Part shown: positions 70 through 1,498 of the stretch, in pieces
How positions within the stretch are numbered: the first letter of the stretch is position 1
How the letters are laid out: each line of letters opens with the position of its first letter
Source of the DNA: Escherichia phage vB_EcoM_G2133
Direction: 5' to 3' (one strand)
Sequence record: MK327928.1
Length of the DNA stretch: 64,000 nt
Notes under the pieces: model-generated
Database searches by the model: none
Told to the model about the DNA's origin: nothing
The model's input: the letters and a program-made list of their open reading frames with translations, nothing else
Made by a program: the position numbers and the translations under genes

Positions 70-252
70 CTACAACATAAGCAATTTCACTACGTTTGCA
101 TAGGTGTTGATTTCTTTACCATCGCCACCTAAGAAAGAATACCCATTACGTTTTAATGAGCCAAAGTCTTCCACATCACCAATGAAAGCTTTAACTTTAA
201 ATTTAGAACCTTTGGCATCTGCTTCAACGATAAATTCTTGATACATTTTCAT
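70..252 (-). CDS. small internal-protein-like protein with capsid-targeting-type N-terminus
   Basis: 60-aa ORF; N-terminus MKMYQEFIVEA resembles the T4 internal-protein capsid targeting sequence (MKTYQEFIAE) with an IxE protease-type site; directly downstream of denV. Confidence 0.5.
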   Translation of the reverse strand: MKMYQEFIVEADAKGSKFKVKAFIGDVEDFGSLKRNGYSFLGGDGKEINTYANVVKLLML

Positions 253-258
253 TTTTCC

Positions 259-672
259 TTAGTAAATTGATTTACCAAAGTATTTGTACCAAGTCGGACG
301 TTGAGCAATTTTTTCATCTAAGCGTGCTTGACTTATCGCAATGGACGCTTCGGACGGGACATAATTATTACGAAATTCTACAGGAATGTCGGAAATATCC
401 TGGACTGTCGTGTCCTTGATTTTGAAACCACGTTTCAAACATTCAGCGATTAGCTCGATTTGACGTAAACGTAAAAATTCGAGTTTGTCGTAAAAGAATG
501 TTACGTGACCTGTGCCTAAGATAAATGTTGGAGAGATTTTAAAATCCTTTACACGTTTACCGTTTTGAACATGTTTACGGACTGCACCAAATACGCGTGG
601 TAATTCACGATACTCAGCCATAAGATGTTGGTCGGTCAATTCAAAAACAAGTGTTAAATTGATACGGGTCAT
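259..672 (-). CDS. denV: endonuclease V, pyrimidine-dimer DNA glycosylase/AP lyase
   Basis: Translation from [34 protein letters not shown] matches T4 endonuclease V along its length; start placed at the internal Met (ORF track begins 4 codons earlier). Confidence 0.9.
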
Positions 673-731
673 AATTTCCTCCAAGTAGTTGATGAATGTA
701 TAGTATCAAAACCCTTGGAGGAAGTAAACAA

Positions 732-1013
732 CTATTTTTCTGAAGCGCCTGAAATATATTTTTCAAGACGTTGTTTCATCAGCGAGCCGTTCTTAGCGAT
801 TTCTTCCGGTTTATCGCACATACGCAACAAGGCTTCAAGCTTAACGATATCACTGGTGCGCTCAAATTTGCGAGTATCTATCTTACTAGCAAGTTCAGAA
901 ATACGTGTTAATAGACTTTCAGCTTCAACCAAAGCTGCACCTAGCTTAGTTGCAAATGTGTCAGTAGCTTCGTTAAGAATAGATTCTGATAAAAATTCAC
1001 TATATGTTTTCAT
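732..1013 (-). CDS. internal-protein-like protein (ipII/ipIII position) with capsid-targeting-type N-terminus
   Basis: Between e and denV where T4 carries ipIII/ipII; from the internal Met the protein begins [10 protein letters not shown] (capsid-targeting-like); ATG overlaps the e stop as ATGA; paralogous to the ORF at 8220..8477. Confidence 0.55.
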
Positions 1014-1498
1014 ATATACGCTTTCCAAGTTCCTGTTTTAAATGTTGAGATTACGCGTTTCGCGCGATTAGGTGTTTGATTATACCATCTACTTTTAGCT
1101 AAGTTAACTGCTGCTTCATCCCAGCGTTTTTGCTGAAGCATACGTAAAGAGTTAGTAAATCCTGCCACACCGGTTTCTCCCATTTGGAAGACCATATTAA
1201 TCAATGCACAACGACGAACCGCATCAAGAGAATCATAAACCGGTTTTAATTTAGCATTTCTTAAAATTCCGCGAACAGCCGCATCAACATCTTGATTAAA
1301 GAGTTTTTCAGCCTCATCTTTTGTAATTACACCATTGCAATTACGCCCAATAGCTTTATCTAATTTAGATTTAGCAACATTAAGTGATGGACTTTTTGTA
1401 AGCAAATGACCGATGCCAATAGTGTAATAGCCTTCTGTGTCTTTATAGATTTTAAGTCTAAGACCTTCATCTATACGTAACATTTCAAATATATTCAT
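1010..1498 (-). CDS. e: lysozyme (endolysin)
   Basis: [40 protein letters not shown]... is T4 lysozyme with a few substitutions. Confidence 0.97.

Follow-up and report, generated by a model that had tools for sequence, protein, structure and literature searches.

Internal proteins of T-even phages are, in the standard view, injected anti-defence cargo (PMC3012670). The locus described here raises the question of whether the two small genes that flank denV, at the start of a 64,000-nucleotide stretch of Escherichia phage vB_EcoM_G2133 (MK327928.1; the whole stretch is hereafter called the window), encode cargo of this kind, and whether they add anything new to it. A first-pass annotation had presented both as candidate effectors, recognised by their N-terminal capsid-targeting leaders. 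We found that the observation was correct and its interpretation textbook. However, the genes, their families, and their arrangement had all been catalogued before, and one "effector" of the pair is broken. The overall explanation that we consider likely is that an intact Ip5-type gene and a decaying internal protein (ip) gene lie on either side of denV, and that products of this type would be packaged, cleaved, injected, and used against host defence.

Both genes carry a T4-type capsid-targeting leader

The two open reading frames (ORFs) lie on the minus strand with the N-termini given earlier. ORF1 (70..252) encodes 60 amino acids, ORF2 (732..1013) encodes 93, and denV (259..672, minus strand, Pfam Pyr_excise) is located between them, as had been described. 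The region had been extended to position 1028, which is merely an in-frame upstream TTG; the annotated homologues of ORF2 all start at the ATG at 1013.

ORF1 begins with MKMYQEFIVE (223..252, minus strand), followed by A11, and retains Y4, F7, I8, and E10. ORF2 begins with MKTYSEF, and its leader or propeptide (codons 1-15, 969..1013, minus strand) contains two I/L-x-E sites, LSE10, which is followed by S, and LNE15. Compared to the leader of T4 IPII and IPIII (MKTYQEFIAE, translated from NC_000866), ORF1 has 2 mismatches in 10 residues and ORF2 has 3, with the targeting determinants Y4/F7 and the processing residues I/L8 and E10 kept in both. The first 10 residues of IPIII suffice for packaging, positions 4 and 7 of the leader weighing most in targeting and positions 8 and 10 in processing (reviewed in PMC9026906). 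The 10-residue leader by itself packages foreign proteins (PMC9026906, PMC3012670), and I/L-x-E is the cleavage preference of gp21 (PMC12991175). Among the 577 frames of the window that open with Met and run to 40 amino acids or more, 4 carried the motif MKx[YF]xEF, against 0.01 expected (an excess of about 400-fold), and the leader motif is therefore not a product of chance. Codon shuffles (n=200) gave a mean of 0.005 such frames and never more than 1. All four frames fall within the two classical ip loci.

The first-pass annotation saw no enzymatic domain in either protein, and we found none: Pfam and NCBIfam scans of both were empty, and PDB sequence searches with both returned noise only. 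Its suggestion to compare them with T-even internal proteins placed both in internal head protein families of RefSeq and PHROGs.

ORF1 reads as a frameshift allele of a longer gene

ORF1 had been taken for a bona fide effector of 60 amino acids. By tblastn and DNA alignment, it is instead a naturally occurring truncated allele of an internal head protein gene of 86-87 amino acids. In a three-frame translation, the frame of ORF1 stops at position 70 and a second frame stays open through …RSEIAYVVASPKVDVDDIGYDFNNFGIISGG to position 1 of the window; this stretch (1..94, minus strand, open to the window edge) aligns with intact alleles as the out-of-frame 3' remainder of the gene. The frameshift site in the DNA alignment is a run of three T on the plus strand, or three A on the coding strand, at 95..97, where the window reads GCAAACG and intact alleles read GCAAAACG, one A having been lost from a run of four. 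Codons 1-52 of ORF1 are authentic, its last 8 residues (NVVKLLML) are out of frame, and the frame does not continue through a conserved C-terminal block (…KRSEIAYVV..KVD.DDI.YDF.NFGI.SGGKA). Joining the two frames gave a protein of 86 amino acids (restored ORF1), which tblastn found at full length, and mostly in one piece, in 216 phage records. Its relatives include RB69 ORF125c (93% identical), VR20 gp119 (72%), and a protein of Salmonella phage S16 (67%). The mature forms would be 50 amino acids long for truncated ORF1 and 76 for restored ORF1, the latter with an isoelectric point (pI) of 6.4.

The exact ORF1 protein is present in GenBank from its second Met (QBO60866.1, vB_EcoM_G2133). Annotation pipelines often place the start of the ORF1 family at this second ATG (246, MYQEF…), so that the MK of the leader is lost, probably as a result of Shine-Dalgarno spacing. 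The first ATG is read as the ancestral start of the family, since relatives carry MKTYQEF or MKTYQEFITE. Second-ATG starts in automated annotation therefore conceal the leader of the ORF1 family.

A change from four A to three is a classic type of error, and the deletion could be a homopolymer artefact of sequencing or assembly in a phage that encodes the intact 86-amino acid protein. The window allele of ORF1, including its three A, was found at 100% identity over 294 nucleotides in two metagenome-derived contigs, ENA ERZ28583014 and Logan SRR13318339, and because both carry the identical allele the single-A lesion appears to be real. The GenBank isolate protein agrees with these assemblies, and related phages carry lesions in this gene that are clearly not artefacts, namely a 2-nucleotide insertion shared by a Russian and a Danish phage, a 2-nucleotide deletion, and microhomology deletions of 57 and 144 nucleotides. 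Counting against a real lesion, a single-A deletion is a change for which a homopolymer sequencing error may be shared across datasets. On balance, we regard an artefact as very unlikely and retain the truncated allele.

Restored ORF1 matched PHROG 2667 (4e-20), which VR20 Ip7 also matches (8e-43). Divergence from IPII or Ip7 was rejected as an origin of ORF1, as the likeness stops at the leader (leaderless ORF1 versus Ip7, E=0.46). The ORF1 family appears, from these comparisons, to be a separate and unnamed ip family. AlphaFold modelling of the family gave a predicted local distance difference test score (pLDDT) of 50, too poor for use.

The ORF1-family gene has been inactivated repeatedly

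At least five kinds of lesion disrupt the ORF1-family gene among related phages, in addition to two microhomology deletions. DNA alignment identified a deletion of 2 nucleotides in UFV13, an insertion of AA common to Pu-Krd-SF5 (Russia) and FL44 (Denmark), an insertion of T in Lutter, and two separate 1-nucleotide deletions in ECO07P1. Several more frameshift truncations of the family were found among the forms in the protein collection (P0005 and P0007-P0009). Two further forms carry in-frame deletions between direct repeats, one of 57 nucleotides between two copies of AAAACGTA (P0003) and one of 144 nucleotides between two copies of GTCCTAAA (P0010). The frequency of broken alleles was based on a 60-row spread sample together with protein clusters; 4 of the 45 close records in the unbiased spread sample needed more than one tblastn piece. 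A scan of IMG/VR for further ORF1 loci returned 5 only.

A side observation concerns PHROG 35655, a 38-residue profile of "unknown function" that restored ORF1 matched in two stretches. It appears to have been built from a derivative of the 144-nucleotide microhomology deletion (compare P0010), in which case this PHROG would be a family consisting of a deletion allele.

One alternative is that the 60-amino acid product is itself a functional effector, its N-terminal 52 residues being active and the frameshift tolerated or selected. The aligned frameshifts all lie past codon 37 and leave the leader and the block KFKVKAF..DFGSLKRNGY in place, the 10-residue leader is known to be enough for packaging, and the truncated allele persists in two independent datasets. 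However, conservation of the last 34 residues equals that of the N-terminus when intact alleles are compared over a range from Tequatrovirus to Salmonella phage S16, and no common core survives among the deletion forms, as P0010 lacks the N-terminal block and P0003 the middle. Moreover, the ratio of nonsynonymous to synonymous polymorphism (pN/pS) of ORF1 is relaxed (0.33-0.36), indicating weaker constraint than on ORF2. We find a functional 60-residue effector rather unlikely. The truncated product would probably still enter heads and has most likely lost its activity. It would be a mistake to treat the 60-amino acid ORF1 of vB_EcoM_G2133 as a functional effector.

Our reading is that the ORF1-family gene may be dispensable on current hosts and is repeatedly lost, in agreement with the experimental loss of T4 ipIII under relaxed selection (PMC9391042). 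Neutral decay is the most likely account of the recurrent inactivation. Alternatively, loss could be selected, if the injected protein triggers a host defence and ORF2 blocks a common first-response defence other than GmrSD. Phage proteins can activate abortive-infection systems, and this alternative draws on at least seven different ORF1-family lesions in phages and metagenomes; we judge it quite unlikely and keep neutral decay. The recurrent and mechanistically diverse inactivation of the ORF1 family is the only modestly new point of the locus.

ORF2 is an intact member of the Ip5 family

ORF2 aligned end to end with PHROG 3499 ("internal head protein", E=2.9e-46), and its exact protein is in GenBank (QBO60868.1, vB_EcoM_G2133). 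It is 88% identical to the VR20 gene annotated ip5, 47-52% identical over 84 residues to Ip5 of RB14, PP01, T2, and RB70, and 48% identical to the window's own Ip5 gene at 8220..8477. Searched with the profile, 1.84 billion representatives yielded only six proteins, which were small phage proteins resembling internal proteins except for one weak match to a protein of 1,212 amino acids, probably spurious; the profile also retrieved the "Ip5" of T2 and of RB70 (UniRef Q38378). No non-packaged relative of ORF2 came out of this search, clear homology to such a family being what the first-pass annotation had named as speaking against its proposal.

Purifying selection on ORF2 is strong, with a pooled pN/pS of 0.09. 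Residues 16-93 are identical at 77 of 78 positions in RB69 ORF127c (RB69 stretch 6923-7204), whose leader differs at residues 5-12 (MKTYMNFYQNLSLNE) and keeps Y4, F7, and LNE15. Since the mature part is so nearly identical while the leader differs, the comparison suggests that ORF2 is a constrained cargo module that has been laterally exchanged. An alternative targeting sequence used throughout RB69 was ruled out, as MKTYQEFIA is the leader in the remaining ip genes of that phage.

The same alignments bear on the cleavage site. E15, in the context L/I-x-E (LNE or ITE), is the only glutamate that is near-invariant in the Ip5 family, whereas position 10 is not conserved (V in VR20, within LTV; N in RB69, within YQN). 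For this reason ORF2 is predicted to be cut by gp21 after E15, in parallel to T4 IPI, the propeptide of which ends at ITE19. The mature protein would then have 78 amino acids, 8.7 kDa, and a pI of about 8.1. The AlphaFold model of ORF2 is a helical bundle, with helices at residues 15-44, 53-65, and 69-92 (mean pLDDT 78.6).

ORF2 and ORF1 lie downstream of the late promoters of e

All genes in the first 11 kb of the window (1-11 kb) are on the minus strand, and their order at this end, 5' to 3', is nudE, two late promoters, e, ORF2, denV, and ORF1. The gene nudE (1536..1976, minus strand) is upstream of the promoters and of e, which encodes a T4-type lysozyme (1010..1498, minus strand; Pfam Phage_lysozyme, synteny with T4). 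The two promoters, TATAAATA at 1512-1519 and 1525-1532 (minus strand), are exact T4 late consensus sequences, and this pair is the only exact late promoter sequence upstream of ORF2 and ORF1. The nearest candidate for ORF1, TACAAATA at 281-288, has one mismatch. Terminator prediction on the minus strand of window 1-1700 returned none. The start codon of ORF2 and the TGA stop of e overlap as ATGA, and ORF2 is predicted to be translationally coupled to e. The spacer between ORF2 and denV is 59 nucleotides, and that between denV and ORF1 is 6 nucleotides and contains AAGGA. The product of denV, endonuclease V, has 137 amino acids (Pyr_excise 4e-13; phrog_1183 1e-60) and is 98% identical to RB69 DenV.

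Because ORF2 overlaps e and shares its late promoters, its product might also be a cytoplasmic late protein that is tied to lysis and not packaged. However, the ORF2 paralogue (48% identical) lies in the ipI locus, far from e; members of the Ip5 family have in common a leader that keeps Y4, F7, and L/I-x-E; and the T4 slot after e is occupied by ipIII, which encodes a proven internal protein. A cytoplasmic role is extremely improbable in our estimate, and packaging of ORF2, argued from its leader, has a high probability.

A promoter-like element was read in the sequence of the ORF2-denV spacer (700..729, minus strand; GTTTAC, 18 nucleotides, TG-n-TACTAT), and phage Lutter has a promoter annotated at the equivalent position. 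A sigma-70 consensus scan did not return the element, which we infer to be an early promoter for denV and ORF1. ORFs on the plus strand that overlap the region (104..241, 715..1041, and others) were unsupported and were set aside as antisense noise.

The arrangement is a common T-even haplotype

The window is Tequatrovirus DNA, and its positions 1-1500 are the e-denV internal-protein locus, one of the two polymorphic T-even ip loci. By synteny with T4, VR20, and RB69, ORF1 and ORF2 sit in the e-denV-vs.8 locus, the other being 57B-tRNA. PMC2839356 and PMC12373910, citing Repoila et al. 1994, report that variation is high at the two ip loci and that cassettes are shuffled in them. Window 1-1600 matched 696 phage records, almost all of them Tequatrovirus and close relatives, and in 196 records at least 80% of it was covered, meaning the same gene order; the best match was Pu-Krd-SF5 (97.8%). 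In T4 the order is e-ipIII-ipII-denV-vs.8, so the first-pass annotation was right to place both ipIII and ipII between e and denV and to note that the window differs. RB69 (Mosigvirus) has e-ORF127c-denV-ORF125c, with 91% nucleotide identity over 1.5 kb, and VR20 (Gaprivervirus) has e-ip5-denV-ip10-gp119-ip7-vs.8. The e-ip-denV-ip order is thus a common and already catalogued haplotype. The novelty implied by the first-pass annotation did not hold: the name "Ip5" has been in use since the 1990s (Q38378), both proteins are in GenBank (QBO60866.1 and QBO60868.1), and RB69, VR20, and about 196 phage records show this layout. The window brings no new family and no new arrangement.

Relatives differ in what lies beyond the position of the window's left edge: ipII in Pu-Krd-SF5, ip10 and ipIII in UFV13, and ipIII and ipII in ECO07P1. 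The ENA ERZ28583014 contig, which carries the ORF1 allele of the window, has ipIII (193 amino acids) alone next to it. A strong early-type promoter-like element (GTTTAC, 17 nucleotides, TG-n-TATAAT) was observed before this ipIII, at 1640-1780 of the contig. This gene and its promoter-like element are probably what lies just past the left edge of the window.

Two further observations were made on the cassette. FL44 (1333-1507) and Shinka (1331-1507) have about 170 nucleotides, without denV, between their Ip5-like and ORF1-family genes, so that denV is variably present. RB69 ORF124c (RB69 stretch 5848-6120, 90 amino acids) resembles Ip10 homologues, with an altered C-terminus and a length short of the 104-amino acid forms of UFV13 and VR20, and may be another decayed ip allele.

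The ipI locus and other features of the window

A second Ip5-family gene, the paralogue of ORF2, is at 8220..8477 (minus strand, 85 amino acids, phrog_3499) and begins with MKTFKEFATKTTITE followed by S. A further leader-bearing gene is at 7912..8145 (minus strand, 77 amino acids, phrog_8111 1.2e-52), with MKTYQEFIAE followed by T. Both genes are directly downstream of 57B (8550-9005), for which Pfam gives anti-CBASS Acb1.

In the tRNA region, ARAGORN called a 94-nucleotide tRNA-Lys(ttt) at 5105-5198 (minus strand), which was absent from the Rfam matches, these being limited to the seven remaining tRNAs. T4 has its tRNA-like stable RNAs rnaC/rnaD at the corresponding place, which makes the tRNA call doubtful. 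Three minus-strand ORFs at 5451-6116, 6662-7294, and 10659-11333 comprise a GIY-YIG (segB-like) homing endonuclease in the tRNA cluster and two HNH-like ORFs; the HNH-like motifs were identified by eye (one reads …CPNCHSQTD…), with no Pfam match at 1e-3.

Proposed function of the internal proteins

A sequence of events may be proposed from the genes and their leaders. Late in infection, ORF2 and ORF1 would be transcribed by read-through from the two promoters before e, with ORF2 translationally coupled to e and ORF1 placed 6 nucleotides beyond denV. The N-terminal leader, through Y4 and F7, would direct each product to the prohead and its scaffolding core of gp22, and gp21 would then cleave after I/L-x-E, at E10 in ORF1 and most likely at E15 in ORF2, leaving a mature ORF2 of about 8.7 kDa in the head. 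The window encodes the presumed leader-binding structure, the gene 22 scaffolding core protein (39421..40230, plus strand; Pfam T4_CASP 1.7e-89), and the enzyme expected to remove the leader, the gene 21 prohead protease (38752..39390, plus strand, 212 amino acids; Pfam Peptidase_S77 1.5e-111). Injected with the DNA, the mature protein would act in the first minutes of infection. Internal proteins reach the host cytoplasm before other phage proteins do. The most plausible action of the mature protein would be to bind and block a nuclease-type host defence, as T4 Ip1, Ip2, and Ip3 do with GmrSD.

Each of these three T4 proteins inhibits a single type IV restriction enzyme of the GmrSD type, and there is no cross-protection (PMC12373910); leaderless IPIII is active from the cytoplasm (PMC9391042). 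By analogy with them, we lean towards an anti-defence role for the injected protein, as a small binding protein that would neutralise a first-response host defence; a type IV restriction enzyme as its target is possible and would be a tentative assignment. The proposal of anti-defence cargo made in the first-pass annotation thus stands in so far as it repeats the standard T-even view, which PMC12373910 has strengthened, and falls short in that the mature regions of both proteins are unlike IPI*, IPII, and IPIII.

Internal proteins could instead lack a specific host target and be mainly structural or physical cargo that helps to condense the DNA, to neutralise its charge, or to eject it. About 1000 internal-protein molecules are embedded in the T4 DNA, their lysines touching phosphates (PMC3012670), mature ORF2 would be mildly basic if cut at E15 (pI 8.1), and the text of PMC12373910 reports no target for ip4-10. 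On the other hand, specific restriction-enzyme targets have been assigned to all three T4 internal proteins (PMC12373910, PMC9391042), and the mature form of restored ORF1, at pI 6.4, is not basic. From one family to another the mature sequences are unrelated, yet within that of ORF2 they are highly conserved (77/78), a pattern more in keeping with a specific partner than with a bulk polycation. A purely physical role is therefore unlikely in our view, and we prefer that of an injected anti-defence protein.

Several results weigh against this explanation. No virion proteomics or N-terminal sequencing of the ORF1 or ORF2 family turned up in the literature searched, so the case for packaging is made from the leader. 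BLASTP of ORF1 and ORF2 against IPI*, IPII, and IPIII gave nothing past the first 11-26 or so leader residues, the figure for ORF2 being about 11-23, and because the mature regions are unlike those proteins, no target is transferable by homology. With the ORF2 model as query, Foldseek found nothing in PDB or BFVD outside the family of ORF2 itself. The promoter scan showed no dedicated consensus late promoter for ORF1 or ORF2, the result for ORF1 being the adverse one. Moreover, according to the text of PMC12373910, ip4-ip10 of T4-like phages gave no reproducible inhibition against 15 GmrSD groups, in a screen whose ip5 allele that text leaves unspecified.

With restriction-enzyme targets assigned to three T4 internal proteins, each orphan ip family becomes a handle for the matching defence. 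The ORF2 subfamily, highly conserved and exchanged between genera, is a good candidate for target hunting.

Comparison with known systems

Classical Ip5 (T2, T6, RB14, RB70 Q38378, and PP01; PHROG 3499) aligns with ORF2 end to end. The two share the core KLGxAL.EAE.L..RI.ELA…EIAKNGS.MK.RLE, and both have leaders with I/L-x-E15. ORF2 differs in being about 48% identical, in having a C-terminus that is 8 residues longer, and in its location between e and denV, whereas classical Ip5 lies in the ipI locus; vB_EcoM_G2133 has both. The closest parallels in arrangement are RB69 ORF127c/ORF125c and VR20 ip5/gp119 (RefSeq "internal head protein"), which have the same e-ip-denV-ip order as the window. 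RB69 ORF127c is 91% identical to ORF2, and RB69 ORF125c is the intact 86-amino acid form of ORF1, which in the window is frameshifted. Ip7 and restored ORF1 match the same PHROG (2667), but without the leader they have no significant pairwise similarity.

Compared to T4 IPI*, IPII, and IPIII, ORF1 and ORF2 have the same kind of leader and occupy the same two genomic loci. The mature sizes are alike, with 76 amino acids in T4 IPI*, 78 in ORF2, and 76 in restored ORF1. The folds would differ, in that ORF2 is predicted to be all-helical and IPI* is described as a pair of beta sheets with helices on either side (PMC3012670). The life cycle of ORF1 and ORF2 is presumed to be that of the T4 internal proteins, which are packaged, cleaved by gp21, and injected.

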